Position numbers and translations under genes: made by a program. Source: a virus (taxonomy: Duplodnaviria > Heunggongvirae > Uroviricota > Caudoviricetes). Taken from it: DNA of 11,461 bases. The DNA lies in IMG/VR virus record IMGVR_UViG_3300027151_000220. One strand, given 5' to 3'. Below, piece after piece: positions 7-11,461 of this stretch (position 1 is the stretch's first letter; every line of letters begins with the position of its first letter). The notes below the pieces were generated by a model that saw nothing but the letters and a program-made list of their open reading frames with translations, had not been told where the DNA came from and ran no database searches.

Positions 7-1479
7 ATGAGTTTATATAAGCTGGTTCTTAAAGGAGCCAATGATGTTGAGCAGGTTTTAGTTTATGACCCAATGACATCTGAGATGTTTTGGGAAGAAA
101 CAAAAGAAAAACCATCGCTGAGCCACATTTCTAATGGTTTGGAGTACCAAATTAATGCAAAAGTTTGGACTCCTGCCAAAGTAACAAACCCTCACGATCC
201 AGAACTCCACGGAAGAAAATCCAGAAAACCAACAACACTTAAGATTACTATGGGTCTTAAGTGTAATTATGCTTGCTCTTACTGCAATCAAGCACATCAA
301 CCTCATGATCCAGTAGGCGGACCAGATGACGCAGAAGATCTAGTTCGAAAAATGAAAGAAAATTTTCAGTTCGGAACTTATGATAGATTCCGTCTTGAAT
401 TTTGGGGTGGTGAACCAATGGTATATTGGAAGACCCTAAAACCTTTAGCTGAAAAGGTTAGAAAAGTTTATCCCAATGCACAGTTTATGATGGTAACCAA
501 TGGTTCTTTATTGGATAGAGAAAAGATTGATTGGTTTAATCGAATGGGATTTTCAATCGGTATGTCGCATGATGGACCATTACATGCTCAAAATCGTGGA
601 CCAGATCCACTTGATGAACCAAGAGCAAAAGATGCTGTAGTATATGCATTAAAAACTATGGGACAGGGAAGATTTACATTTAACTGTGTATTGACACGTG
701 AGAATGTATCAATACCAGCTGTTCGAGATTTTATTTGCGACAAGTTAAACAGAAAAGATTTTGGATATGAATATACTGAAATTTCTCAGATGGAACTGCA
801 AGTTACAACTGAAGAATTAATGTTACCGTATGATGATTCTGGAATGGCGCATTCTTTGCAAACCCCAGACGAGAAGAAAGAAATTCTACACAATTTATTC
901 TGGGAAACTATTCAAGGACAAAACCAGTTTAGCTGGACAGTCAATACAAAGATTACTGGATTTTTTGAATCGTTAGTTTATCAGAGACCAGCAGAAGTAG
1001 TTGGTCAAAAGTGCGGTATGGACAAAGAAGATAATATTGCCATCGATATGAAAGGTAATGTTACTACTTGCCAAAACACCTCTTCATTGACTAAACATAA
1101 TCTTGGTAATATTGAAGATTTTGATAATATTCGTTTGACCAATTCTTATCACTGGTCGACCAGAGCAGAGTGTCCTAGTTGTCCAGTAGTTCAACTGTGT
1201 CAGGGTGCTTGTTTATTCTTAGAAGATCAGTACTGGACTCAAGCGTGTGAGAATTTATTCTATTATAATCTTGCTATTCTTGCAGGTGCTCTATTCATTA
1301 TGACTGATGGATTAGTTTTGACGAGAATTGAAGGAGATAAGATTAGATTTAATGATGTTAAAACACTTGATGTTATTGATATTAATTTCGTCAAATCTAG
1401 CGGAACTCAAAAATCATGGAAAGTTCGTAAACCTCTGAACATTCCTGTGGTTACTGTTCCAGCAATGCCAGTAGTATAA
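7..1479 (+). CDS. Radical SAM protein with C-terminal SPASM domain (peptide/protein maturase-like)
   Basis: CNYACSYC = CxxxCxxC (C86/C90/C93, nt 262-285); FWGGEP SAM-binding motif; VTNGSLL and IGMSHDGP core motifs; seven SPASM cysteines C336, C355, C389, C392, C398, C402, C414 including Cx2Cx5Cx3C. The frame is open to the left edge (TTT ACA ATG), so the start at 7 is likely but not proven. Confidence 0.92.
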   Translation: MSLYKLVLKGANDVEQVLVYDPMTSEMFWEETKEKPSLSHISNGLEYQINAKVWTPAKVTNPHDPELHGRKSRKPTTLKITMGLKCNYACSYCNQAHQPHDPVGGPDDAEDLVRKMKENFQFGTYDRFRLEFWGGEPMVYWKTLKPLAEKVRKVYPNAQFMMVTNGSLLDREKIDWFNRMGFSIGMSHDGPLHAQNRGPDPLDEPRAKDAVVYALKTMGQGRFTFNCVLTRENVSIPAVRDFICDKLNRKDFGYEYTEISQMELQVTTEELMLPYDDSGMAHSLQTPDEKKEILHNLFWETIQGQNQFSWTVNTKITGFFESLVYQRPAEVVGQKCGMDKEDNIAIDMKGNVTTCQNTSSLTKHNLGNIEDFDNIRLTNSYHWSTRAECPSCPVVQLCQGACLFLEDQYWTQACENLFYYNLAILAGALFIMTDGLVLTRIEGDKIRFNDVKTLDVIDINFVKSSGTQKSWKVRKPLNIPVVTVPAMPVV

Positions 1480-2816: not shown

Positions 2817-3896
2817 ATGAAGCAAATTTTATTTTACAATGTTGGATTCGTTAAACAAGTTGTTGACCAGCAACCTGAGATTTTAGATGGTTATCTTTTA
2901 GACAGAGATTTATTTTATTTTTATGACAAACATAAAATGAATCTTAATAATGTTTATGATAGAACAGGATCTATTCCACATTACCTAAACATTAAACCTG
3001 GACTATTGCAAATACCGAGTGTAGAGGGTTTTAACAAGTCATTTGCTCAATGTGTAGAAGAACGATGTAAACAACTTTTATCATTGGGTAAACGTATAAA
3101 TGTCGTTTGGAGTGGAGGTATTGATAGCACTTTAGTTCTCTGTGCGTTACTGCATTTTGCCAACGATCCAAAACAAATTGCTGTTTATGGAACATATACT
3201 TCCATACTAGAGTCTGGGGATTTTTTAGAGAAAAGAATTATCCCTAAAGGTGTAGATTTAAAAATTAAAGTTTCTTCGAATAGAGATTTTGATGATTGTT
3301 CAGAAAATGAGATATTTGTTACTGGGTTCTTTGGTAATCAGCTATTTGGACCAACTGATAATTTCTCAGTTAATCCTGCAGTAAAAACAAACATATCCTT
3401 TTTTCATCATCAATTTAATGGACCAGATCCATTGGACGACTATACGAAGTACATCGATCCAGAATTGCATGAGTTTATGTTACCATGCATTAATGCTAGT
3501 CCAAAGAAAATTGAAACCTTAAGAGATTTACGTTGGTGGTTTATTTTTAACTTGGATTGGTATACTGCTGAGTTTGCAACAAGAGTTAGTACAAGTCAGC
3601 AAGACAATCAATTTCACTTCTTTAATACAGACGACTTTCAGCGTTATGTGATTACAACTAAAGAACCATTCACTAAAGAAGTTGGAAACCCATTGACTCA
3701 TCGTTGGGTTATGAGGGAGTTAATCGAGGAGTGGAGTGGCGATAGCCATTATGCTTGGCAAAAACCAAAAGGGGTTTCCAATTTAGGAAACCCCGATCCG
3801 ACATGGCTACTTCTATTGGAAGATTATAGTGTGATTAAGTTACCACCCACATCTTTTGTAAACCAAACTAGAATTAACGTCCGAAACCAACCTTAA
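2817..3896 (+). CDS. Asparagine-synthase-like N-type ATP pyrophosphatase (adenine nucleotide alpha hydrolase), synthetase domain only
   Basis: PP-loop VVWSGGIDST (nt 3111-3128); FVTGFFGNQLFG (3321-3350) echoes the AsnB SGEGADELFG motif; no N-terminal Cys glutaminase domain; no QueC-type Zn cysteine cluster; GGGG RBS at 2808-2811. Confidence 0.75.
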   Translation: MKQILFYNVGFVKQVVDQQPEILDGYLLDRDLFYFYDKHKMNLNNVYDRTGSIPHYLNIKPGLLQIPSVEGFNKSFAQCVEERCKQLLSLGKRINVVWSGGIDSTLVLCALLHFANDPKQIAVYGTYTSILESGDFLEKRIIPKGVDLKIKVSSNRDFDDCSENEIFVTGFFGNQLFGPTDNFSVNPAVKTNISFFHHQFNGPDPLDDYTKYIDPELHEFMLPCINASPKKIETLRDLRWWFIFNLDWYTAEFATRVSTSQQDNQFHFFNTDDFQRYVITTKEPFTKEVGNPLTHRWVMRELIEEWSGDSHYAWQKPKGVSNLGNPDPTWLLLLEDYSVIKLPPTSFVNQTRINVRNQP

Positions 3897-4604: not shown

Positions 4605-4937
4605 ATGGCAACTGTTAGCAACCTTTTTGTAGACGCTGGAGCTGACTACAGTACAATTATTACTGTGGCTGCTACTAACGGACAACCATTGAATCTGACT
4701 GGGTATAGCGTGGCTTCTCAGATGAGAAAATCTTACTCATCTTCCACTGTATACAATTTTACAACATCACTTTATGACGCTGCGCAAGGCAAGGTTCGTC
4801 TTCAGTTAAACAACGCACAATCTTCAGCTATCCCAGCTGGGAGATGGCTGTATGACGTAGAAATAACATCACCATCAGGAACTAAAACAAGGGTCATAGA
4901 AGGAATCGTAACAGTAACCCCAGAAATAACGAGATAA
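4605..4937 (+). CDS. Virion structural protein, small beta-sandwich (BppU/LtfC-like) typical of T4-like fibre loci
   Basis: Motif pattern NLFVDAGADY...LNLTGY...QMRKSY...GKVRLQL...AGRWLYDVEITSPSGTKTRVIEGIVTVTPEITR, recognised from structural proteins of cyanophage-like T4 relatives. Confidence 0.75.
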   Translation: MATVSNLFVDAGADYSTIITVAATNGQPLNLTGYSVASQMRKSYSSSTVYNFTTSLYDAAQGKVRLQLNNAQSSAIPAGRWLYDVEITSPSGTKTRVIEGIVTVTPEITR

Positions 4938-4939
4938 TA

Positions 4940-5191
4940 ATGGCAGATACAGTAGCAATAGTTCAGCCCGAAGAATCGTTACAAGTTGCAGTATCAGAAG
5001 GAACAATAGTTCTTTCTAATACCAACTTGGCTAACCCAGCTGTAGTAGAATCAATGTCTAATATTGCAGACGTTGATGTTACAACGAATGGAAAAACAAC
5101 TGGGTCAATATTGATTTACAGAGAAGCAACTCAAAAATGGACCGCCTCAACTACCTTAGATGCGCAAAACATGGAAGGTGGCTATTATTAA
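4940..5191 (+). CDS. Small virion/fibre adaptor-like protein ending in EGGYY
   Basis: TAATAATG junction with the previous gene; IADVDV...GSILIY...KW motif seen in phage fibre proteins; C-terminal EGGYY. Confidence 0.7.
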   Translation: MADTVAIVQPEESLQVAVSEGTIVLSNTNLANPAVVESMSNIADVDVTTNGKTTGSILIYREATQKWTASTTLDAQNMEGGYY

Positions 5192-5205
5192 ATGGAGAAT
5201 AACAG

Positions 5206-7815
5206 ATGGCATCAATAATCAGAATTAAGCGTTCGAGTGGAAGTTCCGCTCCAGCCACACTGGGTGATGGTGAGTTAGCCTACTCATCTGGCTCAGGTAA
5301 ATTATACATTGGTTTCGGTACTGAGGTATCGGGCAGTGCACCTCAACAAATCATCGGTGGTAAATTCTACACCGACCTATTATCTGGAACTGCAGGATCT
5401 TGGTCAACGCTAAGTGGTAAAGCAGTTATTCTTGATAACACAGGTAAGATTGACAAATTCCTAGTTGGTGGTTTAGCGTTTGGTGATGTAGCACCTAATA
5501 CAATTAGTGCAGTAAGTGGCGATATTACAATCGCTCCTAACTCTTCTACAGCAATCGTAAGAATCGCTGGTACAAACCAGATGATGATTCCTGCTGGTAC
5601 TACAGCACAAAGAACTACTCCTGCTTACGCTGGTGCAATTCGTTTCAATACAGATCAAAGTTCTTTTGAAGGATACTCAGGTTCCAACTGGTCATCACTA
5701 GGTGGTGTTCGTTCTGTTGATGGATTAACATACATTACTGCAGAATCTTCTCCAGGTGCTTCTGATGACACTCTAAGATTCTATACAGATGGCACTCTTG
5801 CCATGGCTCTAGACACAGATAGTCTAGACATTGAATCTAAAATTGCAACAGTTAATATTAATGCGACTACTGCTTCTTCTAGCACCGCTACAGGTGCATT
5901 AGTTGTTGATGGTGGTGTTGGTATTGCTGGCGATGTGTATATTGGTGGAAATTTAAGTATCGCTGGTACTGACTTAAATATCGGTAGCGTACAGTTTAAT
6001 CAAGGTTTAACTCTATCTGGTTCAACAACTCCTGCAACTGAATACTTCCGCATCACTGATGGTGCTGCAACACCAGTAACCAAGTTCTTAGTTGATACTG
6101 CAAACGGTAATACTTCTATTACTGGAACATTATCTGCAGGTGCTTCTACTCTTTCATCAGCAACTATTAGCAACAATGCTTCTGTTGGTGGAACTCTAGT
6201 AGTCACTGGCAATACAACACTTAATGGATCTTTAGCAGCTGGCGCATCGACTCTTGCTTCTGCTTCTGTAACAGGTAACGCAACTGTTGGTGGAACATTC
6301 GGTGTAACAGGTGCTACAACTCTAGCAGCATTAAGTGCTACAACTGGTTCTTTCTCTAGCACCCTATCATCTACTGGCGACTTCGCTGTCAATACAAACA
6401 AGTTTACTGTTACTGCAGCTTCTGGAAACACTTCTGTTGCAGGAACTTTAGCCGTAACTGGTGCTACAAACTTAAGTAATACTTTAGGTGTTACTGGAGC
6501 GACTACATTAGGTTCAACTCTTGGTGTAACTGGTGCTGCCACTTTCGCAAGTACTGCCAATGTTGATGGCAACTTCTCTATTGCAACTAATAAGTTTACA
6601 GTAGCTGCCACATCAGGTAATACAGCGATTGCTGGAACTCTTGGTGTTTCTGGAGTATCCAATCTTGCTGCATTAAATGCTACAGCAGGTAATTTCTCTA
6701 CAACTCTTGATGTAACTGGTGCTGCTACTTTCTCTAGCACAGTTTCTTCACTAGGAAACTTTGACGTTGGTACTAATAAGTTTACTGTCAATGCTACATC
6801 AGGTAATGCTCAAATTGCTGGTACATTAGGTTTAACTGGCGACTTAGCAATTAACGTAAACAAGTTTACAGTAGCTGCAACATCAGGTAATACAGCGATT
6901 GCTGGCACATTAACTGTATCTGGAGCTACTACGCTAAGTTCTAACTTAGCAATGAGTGGTAATACTATTACTGGTCTTGCTGATCCAGTAAACCCTCAAG
7001 ACGCTGCAACTAAGAACTATGTTGATGCTGCTCGTTCTGGTCTTGATGTTAAACAGTCAGTTCGTGTAACAACTACAGGAAATATTACTCTTTCTGGAAC
7101 TCAGACGATTGATGGAATCGCTGTTGTTTCTGGTGATCGTGTTCTTGTTAAAGACCAAACTACTGCTTCTCAAAACGGTATTTACGTTGTTGCGAACGGA
7201 TCTTGGTCTCGTGCATCAGATGCAGACGCAAACGCTGAAGTTACTTCTGGTTTATTTACTTTCGTTGAAGAAGGTAATACTCAAGCAGCAACTGGATGGG
7301 TATTAACTTCAACTGGAACACTAACAGTTGGAACTTCTCCATTAACATTCGGTTTATTCTCAATCACCAACAATATTGCTGCTGGTGCTGGTCTTATCAA
7401 GAATGGTAACCAATTTGACGTACAAGTTGGAACTGGTATCGCAATCGTTGCAGACACTGTAACTCTAGCTTCTACTGTTGCTGGTGCTGGTTTAACATTC
7501 ACTGGTGGTGTTGTTGATGTAGTTGGAACTGCAAACAGAATTACTGTCAATGCTGATAGTATTGACATCGCATCAACTTATATTGGTCAATCTTCTATTA
7601 CAACTTTAGGTACTATTACCACTGGTGTTTGGAATGGAACTACTATTGGTGCAGGGTATGGTGGTACTGGCGTATCAAGTTACTCTGTTGGTGATTTGTT
7701 GGTTGCTTCTGGTGCTTCTACTCTAAGTAAATTAAGTGTTGGTGTTTCAGGTAAAGTTCTACAGTCAAATGGAACTACTTTAGTCTACGGCGACGTAGAT
7801 GGCGGAACATACTAA
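5206..7815 (+). CDS. Tail/virion fibre protein (869 aa) with N-terminal IRIKRS..P..L..GELAY domain and internal repeats
   Basis: GGAGA RBS at 5194-5198; G/S/T/A-rich with no Cys or His seen; GTTAQR...GAIRFNT...FEGY..W motif; NKFTV repeats; GLADPVNPQDAATKNYVD and GDRVLVKDQ...QNGIYV fibre motifs; ends DGGTY. Confidence 0.85.
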   Translation: MASIIRIKRSSGSSAPATLGDGELAYSSGSGKLYIGFGTEVSGSAPQQIIGGKFYTDLLSGTAGSWSTLSGKAVILDNTGKIDKFLVGGLAFGDVAPNTISAVSGDITIAPNSSTAIVRIAGTNQMMIPAGTTAQRTTPAYAGAIRFNTDQSSFEGYSGSNWSSLGGVRSVDGLTYITAESSPGASDDTLRFYTDGTLAMALDTDSLDIESKIATVNINATTASSSTATGALVVDGGVGIAGDVYIGGNLSIAGTDLNIGSVQFNQGLTLSGSTTPATEYFRITDGAATPVTKFLVDTANGNTSITGTLSAGASTLSSATISNNASVGGTLVVTGNTTLNGSLAAGASTLASASVTGNATVGGTFGVTGATTLAALSATTGSFSSTLSSTGDFAVNTNKFTVTAASGNTSVAGTLAVTGATNLSNTLGVTGATTLGSTLGVTGAATFASTANVDGNFSIATNKFTVAATSGNTAIAGTLGVSGVSNLAALNATAGNFSTTLDVTGAATFSSTVSSLGNFDVGTNKFTVNATSGNAQIAGTLGLTGDLAINVNKFTVAATSGNTAIAGTLTVSGATTLSSNLAMSGNTITGLADPVNPQDAATKNYVDAARSGLDVKQSVRVTTTGNITLSGTQTIDGIAVVSGDRVLVKDQTTASQNGIYVVANGSWSRASDADANAEVTSGLFTFVEEGNTQAATGWVLTSTGTLTVGTSPLTFGLFSITNNIAAGAGLIKNGNQFDVQVGTGIAIVADTVTLASTVAGAGLTFTGGVVDVVGTANRITVNADSIDIASTYIGQSSITTLGTITTGVWNGTTIGAGYGGTGVSSYSVGDLLVASGASTLSKLSVGVSGKVLQSNGTTLVYGDVDGGTY
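6397..6905 (+). repeat. Four intragenic NKFTVxAxSGNxxI/VAGTL repeats, including a 44-nt near-perfect direct repeat
   Basis: Units start at 6397, 6589, 6775, 6859. Nt 6592-6635 and 6862-6905 match at 43/44 positions. A degenerate copy (TKFLVDTANGNTSITGTL) lies near 6080. Confidence 0.9.
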
Positions 7816-7818
7816 ATA
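7812..7818 (+). promoter_or_regulatory. Possible late promoter variant CTAAATA overlapping the stop codon
   Basis: Same heptamer and similar position relative to a downstream hairpin as at 2761. Confidence 0.45.
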
Positions 7819-7829
7819 GCATAAAGAAC

Positions 7830-7851
7830 AGAGGGATTTTTATCCCTCTTT
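7830..7851 (+). terminator. Stem-loop, probable terminator or processing hairpin
   Basis: AGAGGGAT (7830-7837), loop TTTT, ATCCCTCT (7842-7849); only a short T tail. Confidence 0.6.
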
Positions 7852-7883
7852 CAAAATTGAGTTGTCCTTTTTTAAGGTAAATA

Positions 7884-8558
7884 ATGGCCAATACGGTTAA
7901 GTTAAAAAAGTCTTCCGTACTAGGAAAGATCCCACAATCTGCAGATTTAGATTATGGCGAGTTAGCACTTAACTACGCCGATGGGAAACTGTATTTCAAA
8001 GATTCATCAAACGTAATACAGTTGTTTGGTGCATCTTCTGCCACAGATACCTTAACAAACAAAACACTAACTGATAGCACAGTTAATAATACGCCAATTG
8101 GTGGTACTACTCCATCAACTGGCGCATTTACATCTTTATCCGCTACAGGTAATGTTACAGCAGGGCAAAACTTAGTAAGCAATTTCTCCTCGGGTGACGA
8201 GGGTGGTGAGATTACCCTAAACAAACCTGCAACGAATACAACAATTTCCACAAGTGTCACAATTGACGTGTGGCAAAATAAGGTTCGTATTTTTGAAAGT
8301 GGTGGATCAAATCGTGGTGCATTTATTGATTTATCTGCTGCAGTCGGTGGAGTTGGATCAAACCTTTTAACAGGTGGGTCGCAGGGAACCACATTACCAT
8401 CTCAAACTGGGAATGCAGGAAAATATTTAACAACCGATGGATCGGTACTATCTTGGGCAGCTGTTGCTGGTAGTGGTGGGTTTCCAGTTGTTGATGCAGG
8501 ATTAATTACAGAGTCTATAAATATGTCTGCAATGGTAGATGCGGGAACTATAGCGTAA
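7884..8558 (+). CDS. Short fibre/adaptor protein (224 aa) with N-terminal VKLKKS..P...L..GELALN domain
   Basis: N-terminus similar to that of ORF 5206 (GELA...GKLY); TLTNKTL and LPSQTGNAGKYLTTDGSVLSW fibre motifs; ends with two D-A-G-x-I motifs; AAGG RBS. Confidence 0.8.
   Translation: MANTVKLKKSSVLGKIPQSADLDYGELALNYADGKLYFKDSSNVIQLFGASSATDTLTNKTLTDSTVNNTPIGGTTPSTGAFTSLSATGNVTAGQNLVSNFSSGDEGGEITLNKPATNTTISTSVTIDVWQNKVRIFESGGSNRGAFIDLSAAVGGVGSNLLTGGSQGTTLPSQTGNAGKYLTTDGSVLSWAAVAGSGGFPVVDAGLITESINMSAMVDAGTIA
8516..8523 (+). promoter_or_regulatory. T4-type late promoter TATAAATA embedded in the 3' end of ORF 7884
   Basis: Exact match about 45 nt upstream of ATG 8569. Confidence 0.65.
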
Positions 8559-8568
8559 AAGGTAAAGA

Positions 8569-11461
8569 ATGGCACTCCAAATACAATTAAGACGTGGTAC
8601 ACATAGCCAACATAGTACATTCACAGGTGTCCTTGGTGAAGTAACAGTCAATACCACAAATAACTCTTTACATATGCATGATGGCACCAGTCCTGGTGGC
8701 CATGAATTAGCAAAAGTAAATTTCAGTAACGTAGCTTCTGGCGCAATCGCCAACTCTAAGCTAGCGAACTCAACAATTTCTGGTGTTGCTCTTGGCTCAA
8801 ACTTAGCAACATTAACTATCGGCACTGGTTTAACTGGTGCTGCTTATAATGGTTCATCTGCATCTACAGTTTCTCTAGCAGCTTCTGGCGTAACTGCTGG
8901 TTCTTATGGTTCTTCAACAGCAGTTCCTGTTTTAACCATCGATACATATGGTCGTGTAACTTTAGCAGGTACTGCTGCAATCTCAGGTGCTTTAACATTT
9001 ACTGGGGATGTTTCTGGTTCTGGAACAACTGGAACAACTACAACACTAACTCTTGCTACAGTTAATTCAAATGTAGGAACATTCACCAAACTAACAGTAA
9101 ACGGTAAGGGTCTTGTAACTGCAGCTTCAAATGCTACTACTGCAGATATTGCAGAGAGTGGTAATCTATATTACACTCAAGCCAGATTTGATTCTGCTTT
9201 TGCTGCCAAGTCAACAACTAATTTGGCAGAAGGAACAAATCTTTACTATACTCAAAATAGATTTGATGCTGCTCTTGGCGCAAAGACTACAGATAATTTA
9301 ACTGAAGGTTCGTCAAATCTATATTTCACTACTTCTCGTGCACGTGCTTCAGTTTCAGCAGGAACTGGAATTACATACAGTAATACTACTGGTGTAATTT
9401 CCACTGCACAAGATATTTCTACTACTTCTTCTCCAGTATTTGCTGCTATCACGTCAACAGGAGCAATAACTGCTGGAAGTTTAACTGTAAGTGGCGATTT
9501 AACTGTTAACGGAACGACTACTACTGTTAACTCTACTACACTAACAGTAGACGATAAAAATATTGAATTGGGTTCTGTTGCAAGTCCTTCTAATGCTACT
9601 GCTGATGGTGGTGGTATTACTCTTAAAGGTACTACTGACAAAACATTTAACTGGGTATCGGCAAGTGCAGCTTGGACTTCATCTGAACACTTAGCTTTAG
9701 CAGCAGGAAAAACTTTACTACTGAATGGTTCTACATCAGGAACTGTTACTGTTCAAGTTCCTGCAGCAGCTGGCGCAACAACCATCACTCTACCAGCTAC
9801 TACTGGTACTGTTGTTACAACAGGTGACACAGGAACTGTAACCAATGCAATGTTGGCTGGTTCAATCGCCAACGCAAAACTATCAAATAGTTCTGTAACA
9901 ATTAATGGTCAAACAGTATCTCTTGGTGGATCTACCACTGTTACAGCAACTGCTACAAACGCATTAACTATTGGAACTGGATTAACAGGAACATCTTATA
10001 ATGGATCATCTGCAGTAACTATCGGTATTGATTCAACTGTTGTTACTTTAACTGGAACACAGACTTTATCAAATAAGTCCTTATCTGATAGCACAACATA
10101 TTTTGTTGATGAAACAGATGCAACTAAAAAGATGCAAATTCAAGTATCAGGTATTACATCTGGTACTACACGAGTATTAACAGCACCAAACGTAGATGGT
10201 ACTATCGTCACAACTGGCGATACAGGAACTGTTACATCAGCAATGATTGCCAATGGCACTATTGTTAATGATGACATTAGTGCAACTGCAGCAATCGCAT
10301 CATCTAAGATTGCAGGTCTCGCTGCTTCCGCTACAACTGATACAACAAATGCATCAAATATTTCTTCAGGAACATTGGCAGCTGGAAGATTACCAGCATT
10401 CACTGGAGATGCAACTTCAAGTGCAGGATCTTCTGCTTTAACACTATCAGCATCTGGCGTTACTGCAGGAACTTATGGTTCTTCTACCGCAGTTCCTGTA
10501 TTGACTGTAGATGCTAAAGGTAGAATCACTGTTGCTTCTACCGCATCAATTTCTGGTGCAATTACTTTAAGTGGTGATGTTTCTGGAACTGGCACAACAG
10601 GTTCGACAACTAACGTCACTTTAGCAACAGTAAACTCAAATGTAGGAACATTTGGTTCTTCAACAGCGATTCCAACTATCACTGTAAATGCTAAAGGTTT
10701 GGTAACTGGTGTTTCTACAACTGCAGTATTCATTCCTTCAAGTTCTATTGCTGTTACTGGTGGCGATTTAACATTATCTGGAACCACTGGCGCAGATATA
10801 ACTAATGCGACTCTGGCAGCAACTGGTATCGGTGCTGGAACTTACACCAAGATTACTGTTGATACTAAAGGTCGTGCTACAGTAGGTGCACAAGCTACTA
10901 CTTCAGATATTGCTGAGGGAAGCAATCTTTATTATACAGATGCTCGTGCAAGAGCTGCTCATTCAGCTGGAACTGGTATTTCATATAACAGTGGCACTGG
11001 TGCGATTGCTGTAGATACATCCACTATCGCAACACAAACTTATGTTAATACAAAGGTAGCAGACTTAGTAGGTTCTACTCCTGCTACATTAGATACTTTA
11101 CAAGAGTTAGCGACAGCAATTGGCAACGATCCAAACTATGCTTCTACGCTAACTACTTTAGTTGGTACCAAATTAAATACTGCAGATTTTACTTCTACAG
11201 CAAATACTTGGCTTGGAACTAAGTCAACTACAAACTTAGCTGAAGGAACTAATCTTTATTTCACTAATGCGAGAGCAAGAAGTGCTATTAGTGCCAGTGG
11301 CAACTTATCTTATAACTCAACTACTGGTGTAATTAGTTATAGTAATCCAACTACAGATAGTGTTACAGAAGGTTCTACTAACCTTTATTTCACTACCACT
11401 AGAGCTAATACTGCATTTGATAATCGTTTAGGATCAAAATCTACTTCAGACCTCTCTGAAG
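8569..11461 (+). CDS. Long fibre protein, 3'-truncated (>964 aa), with Mtd N-terminal-like domain; absent from the ORF track
   Basis: Translated by hand: MALQIQLRRGTHSQHSTFTGVLGEVTVNTTNNSLHMHDGTSPGGHELAK..., no stop codon to the window end. The N-terminus resembles the Bordetella phage Mtd N-terminal domain (QFRGGT..QH..FTG..REITV...HDG.T.GG). Contains the PATLDTLQELATAIGNDPNYA fibre motif (about 11080-11142). AAGG RBS at 8559-8562. Confidence 0.9.
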   Translation, partial: MALQIQLRRGTHSQHSTFTGVLGEVTVNTTNNSLHMHDGTSPGGHELAKVNFSNVASGAIANSKLANSTISGVALGSNLATLTIGTGLTGAAYNGSSASTVSLAASGVTAGSYGSSTAVPVLTIDTYGRVTLAGTAAISGALTFTGDVSGSGTTGTTTTLTLATVNSNVGTFTKLTVNGKGLVTAASNATTADIAESGNLYYTQARFDSAFAAKSTTNLAEGTNLYYTQNRFDAALGAKTTDNLTEGSSNLYFTTSRARASVSAGTGITYSNTTGVISTAQDISTTSSPVFAAITSTGAITAGSLTVSGDLTVNGTTTTVNSTTLTVDDKNIELGSVASPSNATADGGGITLKGTTDKTFNWVSASAAWTSSEHLALAAGKTLLLNGSTSGTVTVQVPAAAGATTITLPATTGTVVTTGDTGTVTNAMLAGSIANAKLSNSSVTINGQTVSLGGSTTVTATATNALTIGTGLTGTSYNGSSAVTIGIDSTVVTLTGTQTLSNKSLSDSTTYFVDETDATKKMQIQVSGITSGTTRVLTAPNVDGTIVTTGDTGTVTSAMIANGTIVNDDISATAAIASSKIAGLAASATTDTTNASNISSGTLAAGRLPAFTGDATSSAGSSALTLSASGVTAGTYGSSTAVPVLTVDAKGRITVASTASISGAITLSGDVSGTGTTGSTTNVTLATVNSNVGTFGSSTAIPTITVNAKGLVTGVSTTAVFIPSSSIAVTGGDLTLSGTTGADITNATLAATGIGAGTYTKITVDTKGRATVGAQATTSDIAEGSNLYYTDARARAAHSAGTGISYNSGTGAIAVDTSTIATQTYVNTKVADLVGSTPATLDTLQELATAIGNDPNYASTLTTLVGTKLNTADFTSTANTWLGTKSTTNLAEGTNLYFTNARARSAISASGNLSYNSTTGVISYSNPTTDSVTEGSTNLYFTTTRANTAFDNRLGSKSTSDLSE
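8881..10653 (+). repeat. Duplicated 68-aa block inside the last fibre gene
   Basis: 8881-9084 vs 10450-10653 align without gaps, 53/68 aa identical by manual count. Confidence 0.9.
9148..11461 (+). repeat. Dispersed (I/L/V)xEG/SxxNLY(Y/F)TxxR repeats
   Basis: Copies start at 9148, 9223, 9298, 10909, 11236, 11362, plus a truncated one at 11452. Confidence 0.85.

Follow-up and report, generated by a model that had tools for sequence, protein, structure and literature searches.

The fibre gene cluster

The stretch of viral DNA analyzed here (the window, 11,461 nucleotides) represents the minus strand of positions 16778-28238 of the 30.3-kb IMG/VR virus record IMGVR_UViG_3300027151_000220, the completeness of which was estimated at 16%, and contains a cluster of fibre genes. 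We focused on the ends of the encoded proteins, namely short C-terminal motifs (tails) and small N-terminal domains (heads), which an earlier interpretation made from the letters alone (the sequence-only reading) had proposed to dock with each other in gene order. On the 3' side of the fibre genes (in window orientation), the record harbored T4-type neck genes and genes encoding the large terminase, sheath, tube, portal, prohead protease, and scaffold. These genes identify the window as part of a T4-like myovirus genome, and its source is an uncultured phage of this kind. The closest cultured relatives, based on patchy similarity, were phages from marine and freshwater habitats, including Methylophilales phage Melnitz; a nucleotide search of phage records returned short patches only, and a close cultured relative was not found in it. 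The genes and features of the cluster are listed below, with lengths in amino acids (aa); positions beyond 11461 are window-equivalent coordinates in the full record.

4605-4937, plus strand: ORF 4605, 110 aa, Ig-like, probable fibre anchor
4940-5191, plus strand: ORF 4940, 83 aa, small adaptor encoded by a separate gene
5156-5188, plus strand: tail 1, residues 73-83 of ORF 4940 (LDAQNMEGGYY), predicted docking strand
5206-7815, plus strand: ORF 5206, 869-aa fibre segment that begins with a gp37-type (K1) head (residues 1 to ~45) and ends with tail 2
5206-5280, plus strand: contact region of head 1, residues 1-10, 16-18, 22, and 25 of ORF 5206 (MASIIRIKRS..)
7798-7812, plus strand: tail 2, DGGTY, C-terminus of ORF 5206, of the T4 gp36 DFGYY class
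7830-7849: palindromic, GC-rich hairpin (AGAGGGAT-loop-ATCCCTCT) inside the 68-nucleotide gap between ORF 5206 and ORF 7884
7884-8558, plus strand: ORF 7884, 224 aa, connector or short fibre segment whose gp37-type (K2) head spans residues 1 to ~45
8493-8555, plus strand: tail 3, double-motif module DAGLITESINMSAMVDAGTIA, residues 204-224 of ORF 7884
8569-11461 in the window and to 11892 in the full record, plus strand: ORF 8569, 1107 aa, open at the window end, ending in SIIFGF
8581-8691, plus strand: Mtd_N head of ORF 8569, residues 5-41 (Pfam PF18454)
11903-14764: gene for a 953-aa protein, next after ORF 8569 in the full record
14792-16567 (G000:C1:11672-13447): Mtd_N gene, 591 aa, at the position of T4 wac (fibritin), just before gp13

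Motifs at the protein termini

The C-terminus of ORF 4940 was NMEGGYY (5174-5188), and the following ORF 5206 started with MASIIRIKRSSGSSAPATLGDGELAY and ended with VDGGTY (7798-7812). ORF 7884 started with MANTVKLKKSSVLGKIPQSADLDYGELAL and carried DAGLI from 8493 and DAGTIA from 8538 near its end, and the N-terminus of ORF 8569 was MALQIQLRRGTHSQHSTFTGVLGEVTV. All residues and coordinates that had been quoted earlier for these tails and heads were found to be correct on re-reading the sequence. The acidic residue of the tail was variable, since T, N, and S were also found at this position, as in VTGGQY, NGGTF, and ESGQY.

The motifs were strictly terminal. Among 744 distinct proteins from 80 related IMG/VR loci, found through ORF 4940, the pattern [DENT]GGx[YF] formed the extreme C-terminus 108 times and occurred internally 33 times per 277,190 residues, and the internal rate predicts ~0.2 terminal occurrences, so that the pattern is far from chance, although these rows are related to each other and not independent. 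The gp37-type (KR/KK) head motif was N-terminal in 97 of 97 distinct cases, with two more cases carrying a 17-residue extension, and it was never truly internal.

The codons of the tail each occurred in two or three synonymous forms, while the residues were fixed at I/V-D-G-G-T-Y, indicating that selection acts on the protein. The gaps between the tail-bearing genes and the next start codons were 14, 68 (with the hairpin), and 10 nucleotides, and the 68-nucleotide gap places tail 2 outside the ribosome-binding site of the next gene. A function of the motifs as a DNA signal (ribosome-binding site or promoter) was rejected on the basis of these gaps, the hairpin, and the synonymous tail codons. 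The hairpin at 7830-7849 may itself act as an attenuating terminator within the fibre operon.

Identity of the heads

ORF 8569 matched the Pfam family Mtd_N (PF18454) at residues 5-41 with 47.8 bits (cut-off 26.3) and PDB entry 1YU0 (Mtd) with an E-value of 8.5e-10, and a true Mtd_N domain was also present in the product of the gene at 14792. Residues 1-60 of ORF 7884 matched by tblastn the gp37 N-termini of Yersinia TG1 (8e-5), Acinetobacter Ac42 (6e-5), Klebsiella Metamorpho (6e-5), and E. coli EcS1 (1e-4), with others up to 1e-3; these targets were annotated as the long tail fibre distal subunit. The K2 head of ORF 7884 was in turn aligned with the K1 head of ORF 5206 at an hhalign probability of 86.8% (E 4e-6). 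These similarities indicate that ORF 5206 and ORF 7884 both begin with the N-terminal domain of a T4-type gp37.

Neither of these two heads matched Mtd_N in Pfam, with ORF 5206 scoring 14.4 bits, under the cut-off, and the hhalign probability between K2 and Mtd_N heads was 0.9%. A fold search with Foldseek using a 60-aa monomer model of the gp37-type head (pLDDT 84), which is a weak test, gave no PDB match at E < 0.2, and Mtd was outside the top 50. Homology of the gp37-type heads to Mtd_N was therefore not demonstrable by Pfam, hhalign, or fold search. It had been proposed that all three downstream genes start with an Mtd_N-like domain; this holds for ORF 8569, the sole Pfam Mtd_N member of the three, and not for ORF 5206 and ORF 7884. 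No solved structure of a gp37-type head or of ORF 7884 was found in sequence searches.

Tail and head pairing across loci and phages

In the 80 loci found through ORF 4940, the first two junctions were essentially invariant: MEGG[EY][FY] or VTGGQY was followed by MASIIRIKRSS at junction 1, and [IV]DGGTY by x-N-x-[IV]-x-LKKSS at junction 2. From the third gene onward, these loci were variable. The DGGTY motif was found at the end of at least two C-terminal contexts unrelated to each other in these loci, and of many others in the loci selected by their heads, which are described below. In one related locus (L037), it was carried by a protein with a different N-terminus and still stood directly before the LKKSS gene, indicating that a change of the carrier protein leaves the tail and the next head together. 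A four-gene cassette composed of an Ig-like protein, a small adaptor ending in GGx[YF], and two genes with gp37-type heads was also present in cultured phages, namely Melnitz, Prochlorococcus phage P-HM2, Synechococcus phage S-B05, Limnohabitans phage DC31, and Ralstonia phage PY059. In addition, the joints were found in the podovirus Vibrio phage 1.293.O (Zobellviridae).

We further analyzed IMG/VR loci picked by the head alone, which comprised 54 distinct gp37-type junctions and 63 distinct Mtd_N junctions. The gp37-type heads were preceded by an end of the form [DE][GA]Gx[YF] in 51 of 54 junctions, on many unrelated protein bodies, and never by an aliphatic tail (0/54). The Mtd_N heads were preceded by [DNE]xGx[ILV] in 40 of 63 junctions, by GGx[YF] in 10, and by neither in 13. 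An x-G-x-[ILV] end was borne by the gene preceding the Mtd_N head in each of the eight cultured phages that were sampled; examples include BPP-1 Bbp9 (ADLGGIA), HTVC008M (VDLGSVA), and S-TIP37 (IDFGTL). The co-occurrence of tails and heads extended across phage families, and covariation of the tail class with the next head, which the sequence-only reading had put forward as a check, was observed across phage genomes and many unrelated fibre bodies. The accompanying claim, that the motif class switches exactly with the subtype of the N-terminal domain, was borne out as a tendency (51/54 aromatic and 40/63 aliphatic). A strict class code was ruled out by the 10 aromatic and 13 tail-less junctions among the 63 Mtd_N heads.

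The double motif of ORF 7884 had been suggested to mark a branch point of the fibre. However, a two-part module of the DYGLIT..DYGSI form preceded Mtd_N heads in 24 of 63 junctions, with variants such as YDFGYITET..DHGSIV, IDFGSVVES..DFGTL, DYGLVTSAVGDELDYGSVA, and DYGLVTEN..DDGGLS. It was found before Mtd_N heads in related loci and in the cultured Vibrio phages 1.021.A, D69, and K437b, and was also present where a single gene follows. Judging from these alignments, DAGLI..DAGTIA is best interpreted as a single conserved module of ~21 residues at the C-terminus, and the duplication, as a feature of the whole family, is therefore not a branch mark.

Predicted complex at the first joint

A complex of ORF 4940 and residues 1-80 of ORF 5206, each present in three copies, was predicted using a 52-row alignment for each protein; the prediction covered the cognate pair of joint 1. 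The interface score (ipSAE) was 0.86 (0.84, 0.86, and 0.88 in the individual runs), compared with 0.00 for the best of three controls. In calibration, 58 of 80 solved complexes reached the ipSAE mark, as did 2 of 110 mismatched pairs; these counts apply only roughly to this pair, which was run with its own alignments and multi-copy chains. The three runs shared 100% of contacts, and the pLDDT of the partners was at least 82. The interface consisted of residues 73-83 and 54 of ORF 4940 and residues 1-10, 16-18, 22, and 25 of ORF 5206, with the contact pairs 76-4, 78-6, 80-8, and 82-10, a register that points to parallel strand pairing. Because the head had no solved relative by sequence, it is unlikely that the score reflects a solved structure already known to the predictor. 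The model, in which the tail of ORF 4940 lies on the first strand of the downstream head as had been expected for a trimeric N-terminal domain with its cognate upstream C-terminus, supports, rather than demonstrates, the binding of these two proteins.

The probable anchor and the adaptor

ORF 4605 was assigned to phrog_3304 ('L-shaped tail fiber protein assembly', 9e-23) and phrog_1084 (2.4e-29). Its AlphaFold2 model (pLDDT 88.9) matched best in Foldseek the chains 8hqz_T/Q and 7qg9_J/L, with E-values from 2e-7 to 8e-7, TMq of 0.69-0.72, and 25% identity (8hqz_T, E 2.3e-7 and TMq 0.72; 7qg9_J, E 5.5e-7). Based on this model, ORF 4605 is predicted to have the LtfC/p132 collar fold of DT57C/T5 and stands at the head of the fibre genes. 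This result agrees with its earlier description as a collar protein, and ORF 4605 is a probable fibre anchor. In DT57C, LtfC forms a dodecameric ring that clamps N-terminal strands of the lateral fibres by beta-augmentation (PMC10713586). By analogy, ORF 4605 might hold the N-terminal half of ORF 4940 by strand clamping.

A total of 673 homologues of ORF 4940, ranging from 45 to 146 aa, were identified. None of them was fused to a fibre ('Rosetta stone' forms), and the only longer match was an N-terminally extended call; the many small homologues fit a free-standing adaptor that needs a free C-terminus. In the alignment of 52 sequences, G80 and G81 were invariant and the last residue was Y or F. 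No Pfam family was found for ORF 4940 at E <= 0.1.

Proposed assembly of the fibre and alternative explanations

Taken together, these results support the joining of consecutive gene products tail to head, that is, docking in gene order, and we consider it likely that the cluster encodes segments of one long fibre, or of a few such fibres, assembled in this manner. The core of the sequence-only reading, in which each tail docks onto the N-terminal domain of the next protein, was thus supported by homology to T4 and BPP-1, by the loci picked by their heads, and by the complex model of joint 1.

At each joint, the upstream protein would end in a short, free strand that follows the pattern hydrophobic-D/E-x-G-x-hydrophobic-COOH. 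Within the trimer, the partner of this strand would be the basic beta-strand with which the small N-terminal domain of the downstream protein begins, so that the last ~10 upstream residues extend the sheet of the downstream domain in a trimer-on-trimer joint. Judging from the contact list of the model, the KR, KK, or RR pair plausibly lies opposite the conserved acidic residue and the carboxylate of the C-terminus. The aromatic ends (EGGYY and DGGTY) with gp37-type heads (I-x-I/L-K-R/K-S-S ... GELA) would be homologues of the T4 gp36-gp37 joint, and the aliphatic duplicated end (DAGLI..DAGTIA) with the Mtd_N head would be a homologue of the BPP-1 Bbp9-Mtd joint. The chain would run from ORF 4605, as the collar or anchor, through the 83-aa adaptor ORF 4940 to the 869-aa segment, the 224-aa connector, and the 1107-aa segment. 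The 953-aa protein may follow the 1107-aa segment via a SIIFGF/MARxLxEKYIF pair.

Several observations weigh against this interpretation. Heads of the gp37 type without an adjacent tail gene were found in ACG-2014f, S-CAM9, S-PRM1, P-SSM2, S-SKS1, and RsoM2USA, and 13 of 63 Mtd_N heads were preceded by neither tail class. In the same genome, the Mtd_N gene at 14792 is preceded by a gene ending in EAQA, without a tail motif, and its product may therefore attach to the neck and not to the fibre. Another locus (L076) carries three tandem small Mtd_N genes without tails. The aromatic tails before 10 of 63 Mtd_N heads indicate that class does not fully fix the partner, and S-B05 has four tails and two heads. 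Additionally, neither ORF 4940 nor ORF 5206 matched Pfam Phage_T4_gp36 (PF03903) at E <= 0.1. Finally, adjacent genes are co-inherited, so that much of the co-occurrence within close families is not independent.

Some of these points would fit joints that are promiscuous, with the members of a class interchangeable, giving alternative, mixed, or branched fibres in place of a chain fixed by gene order. Joints 1 and 2 share the same class of tail and head, Mtd_N heads can follow aromatic tails, tails outnumber heads in S-B05 and Vibrio phage 1.293.O, DT57C is known for branched fibres, and a complex test such as that used for joint 1 is often passed by close cousins of the true partner. Nevertheless, each family joint has a conserved pair of its own (MEGGEF with MASIIRIKRSS, and IDGGTY with xNKxxLKKSS), and the double motif of ORF 7884, general to its tail type, is found also with one gene following. 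We therefore regard promiscuous joints as unlikely.

The tail-less heads of several cyanophages, the three tandem genes of L076, and the Mtd_N gene behind the EAQA end would also be expected if the products formed independent fibres, with each head attaching alone to the baseplate or collar, the motifs capping their own trimer, and the association arising from co-inherited neighbouring ends; several fibre sets per phage are common, as in P7-1 (PMC13338283). However, the same tail occurs on a fibre-less protein of 83 aa and on many unrelated bodies, always directly before a head, and the pairing is kept across T4-like, T7-like, BPP-1-like, and Zobellviridae phages, while nothing else is conserved in these genes. 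Moreover, T4 gp36-gp37 has the same motifs and is a known serial joint, and the tail forms the predicted interface. Independent fibres are thus quite improbable.

It is highly improbable that the conserved gene ends are merely homology for swaps of fibre cassettes and not protein contacts, since, although mosaic boundaries lie at heads and the third gene onward varies among otherwise similar loci, every tail codon shows synonymous change with fixed residues, and the motifs are common to phages without DNA similarity and restricted to protein termini; recombination at the joints may occur as a by-product.

For docking in gene order, a wider rule can be put forward tentatively, and we give it somewhat less than even credence: the tail and head would be a portable plug-and-socket pair, existing in at least two partly orthogonal classes and serving as a general assembly rule across T4-like, T7-like, BPP-1-like, and Zobellviridae phages. 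The plug would be the free C-terminal strand and the socket the first strand of the ~45-aa N-terminal domain, with x-G-x-aromatic ends for gp37-type heads and x-G-x-aliphatic ends for Mtd_N heads. If this rule holds, it would extend to mini-adaptors made of little beyond a head and a tail, and the sequence could reveal how fibre segments are ordered and allow that order to be re-programmed. If the terminal strand and the N-terminal domain form the joint, the fibre clusters of uncultured phages could serve as assembly diagrams from which the stacking of the products is deduced, and the joints might offer defined sites for swapping receptor-binding segments. Adding a tag to the C-terminus of such a protein should then disrupt assembly.

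Other recurrent ends and neighbouring genes

A fourth conserved junction was found at window-equivalent positions 11875-11950 (L005:16936-17010), where an end of the form DY[IL][AG]YSIIFGF is followed by a MARxLxEKYIF protein. SIIFGF ends were borne by proteins with four different N-termini, all of which precede the MARxLxEKYIF protein of 953-960 aa (phrog_5838). This pair co-varies across loci and may represent an additional kind of joint. The Mtd_N gene at 14792 had many relatives with a coiled-coil end (LKAKLGE).

Mini-proteins of 67-68 aa with little beyond an Mtd_N head were encoded in L112, L116, L120, L124, and other loci (at about 3001-3205), and proteins of 66-84 aa ending in DGGTY(TT) were encoded directly before Mtd_N fibre genes (upstream of L114:1100). 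Both kinds resemble bare adaptor links between joints. In three loci (L079:10250-10900, L083, and L084), an inserted 225-aa gene (MRKTWKVENFKM..) separates the IIRIKRSS fibre gene from the small adaptor gene, so that the two are no longer adjacent; both motifs remain intact. Another recurrent end of fibre proteins, [AIL][IL]ALG(+0-2), was observed in Melnitz (L004 genes 172 and 187), S-CAM9, P-SSM2, S-SKS1, and some IMG/VR loci. After ends of this type (L004, L093-L095, L099, and L057), the next gene encodes a 114-aa protein or is the neck gene gp13.

A 122-aa protein encoded just 5' of the window (window-equivalent -1527 to -1159; L005:3534-3902) ends in a Cys-Asn/Cys-Ala repeat (..NCNCNCACNCNCACNCNC), and its gene lies two genes upstream of a SPASM radical SAM gene (window 7-1479). 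Other loci (e.g., L008:6265-7353) encode a fibre-like protein of 362-403 aa (MASITAPS..LTNAEVDxNF) with a CNCNCNC end. These Cys-repeat proteins are candidate substrates of the radical SAM enzyme.

Comparison with known systems

The serial assembly of the T4 fibre in gene order is textbook knowledge. Trimeric gp36, which is proximal to gp37 in the distal half-fibre, binds the N-terminal region of gp37 (PMC3004832). The gp36 proteins upstream of gp37 end in SVQDFGYY in T4, EIDFGAY in TG1, LDYGTY in Ac42, and EIDFGTY in EcS1, and T4 gp37 starts with MATLKQIQFKRS / MATLKQIQFKRSKIAGTRP..AEGELAINLKD right after the QDFGYY end of gp36. The window resembles this joint in the upstream end D-[FYG]-G-x-[YF]-COOH (here EGGYY and DGGTY), in the start of the next gene (I-x-F/L/I-K-R/K-S ... 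GELA-x-N..D..L), and in gene order as fibre order, which is known for T4 and proposed here. It differs in that the joint is used twice in series; that the first tail is on an 83-aa adaptor behind an LtfC-like protein and not on a gp36 homologue, with the terminal motif alone in common; and that gp34 and gp35 homologues were not seen in this fibre cluster. In a recent cryo-electron microscopy preprint on T4, the distal rod was a low-resolution model based on predictions and did not include a joint at the atomic level.

In BPP-1, Bbp9 ends in NIGLADLGGIA and the next gene is Mtd, which is located at the distal ends of the fibres, presumably via its N-terminal beta-prism (PMC10743442). ORF 8569 has a true Mtd_N domain, and the protein upstream of it shares the D-x-G-x-I-A end (DAGTIA here and DLGGIA in Bbp9). 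In contrast to BPP-1, the downstream protein is a 1107-aa fibre segment instead of a C-type-lectin tip, the diversity-generating retroelement is absent, and the tail of ORF 7884 has the duplicated motif.

A linkage between the ends of successive fibre products has also been described in T-even phages, in which subtypes of the gp37 C-terminus are invariably tied to subtypes of the gp38 N-terminus, read as a lock-and-key contact (Trojet et al. 2011, PMC3157838). The likeness lies in the subtype of the end of one fibre product being linked with that of the start of the next, whereas the domains and sequences are different and the contact joins a tip adhesin and not a fibre segment. With T5 and DT57C (8HQZ and 7QG9), the window shares the predicted LtfC fold of ORF 4605 (E 2e-7, TMq 0.72) as the first of the fibre cluster, and attachment by donated beta-strands is a feature of DT57C. 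However, those phages are siphoviruses and the present one is a T4-like myovirus, and the identity is only 25%. The structure of Pakpunavirus P7-1 was considered as a guide to the joint and set aside as uninformative, since the fibres of that phage are attached to triplex loops. Fibres encoded by several genes and with similarity to gp36 have been reported in Zobellviridae-like podoviruses (PMC4819975).

In the literature, of which coverage was partial, we did not find a description of an extreme C-terminal x-G-x-hydrophobic strand as a joint element, or of its recurrence with both gp37-type and Mtd_N heads across families. Since serial assembly via conserved ends is already known, the gain lies in detail and generality and not in kind. 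One recurrent junction ties together T4 gp36-gp37, BPP-1 Bbp9-Mtd, and the fibres of marine cyanophages and pelagiphages, which have been studied separately so far. Therefore, the design in this uncultured phage is most likely an extension of the known joint of T4 gp36-gp37 and BPP-1 Bbp9-Mtd rather than a new one.

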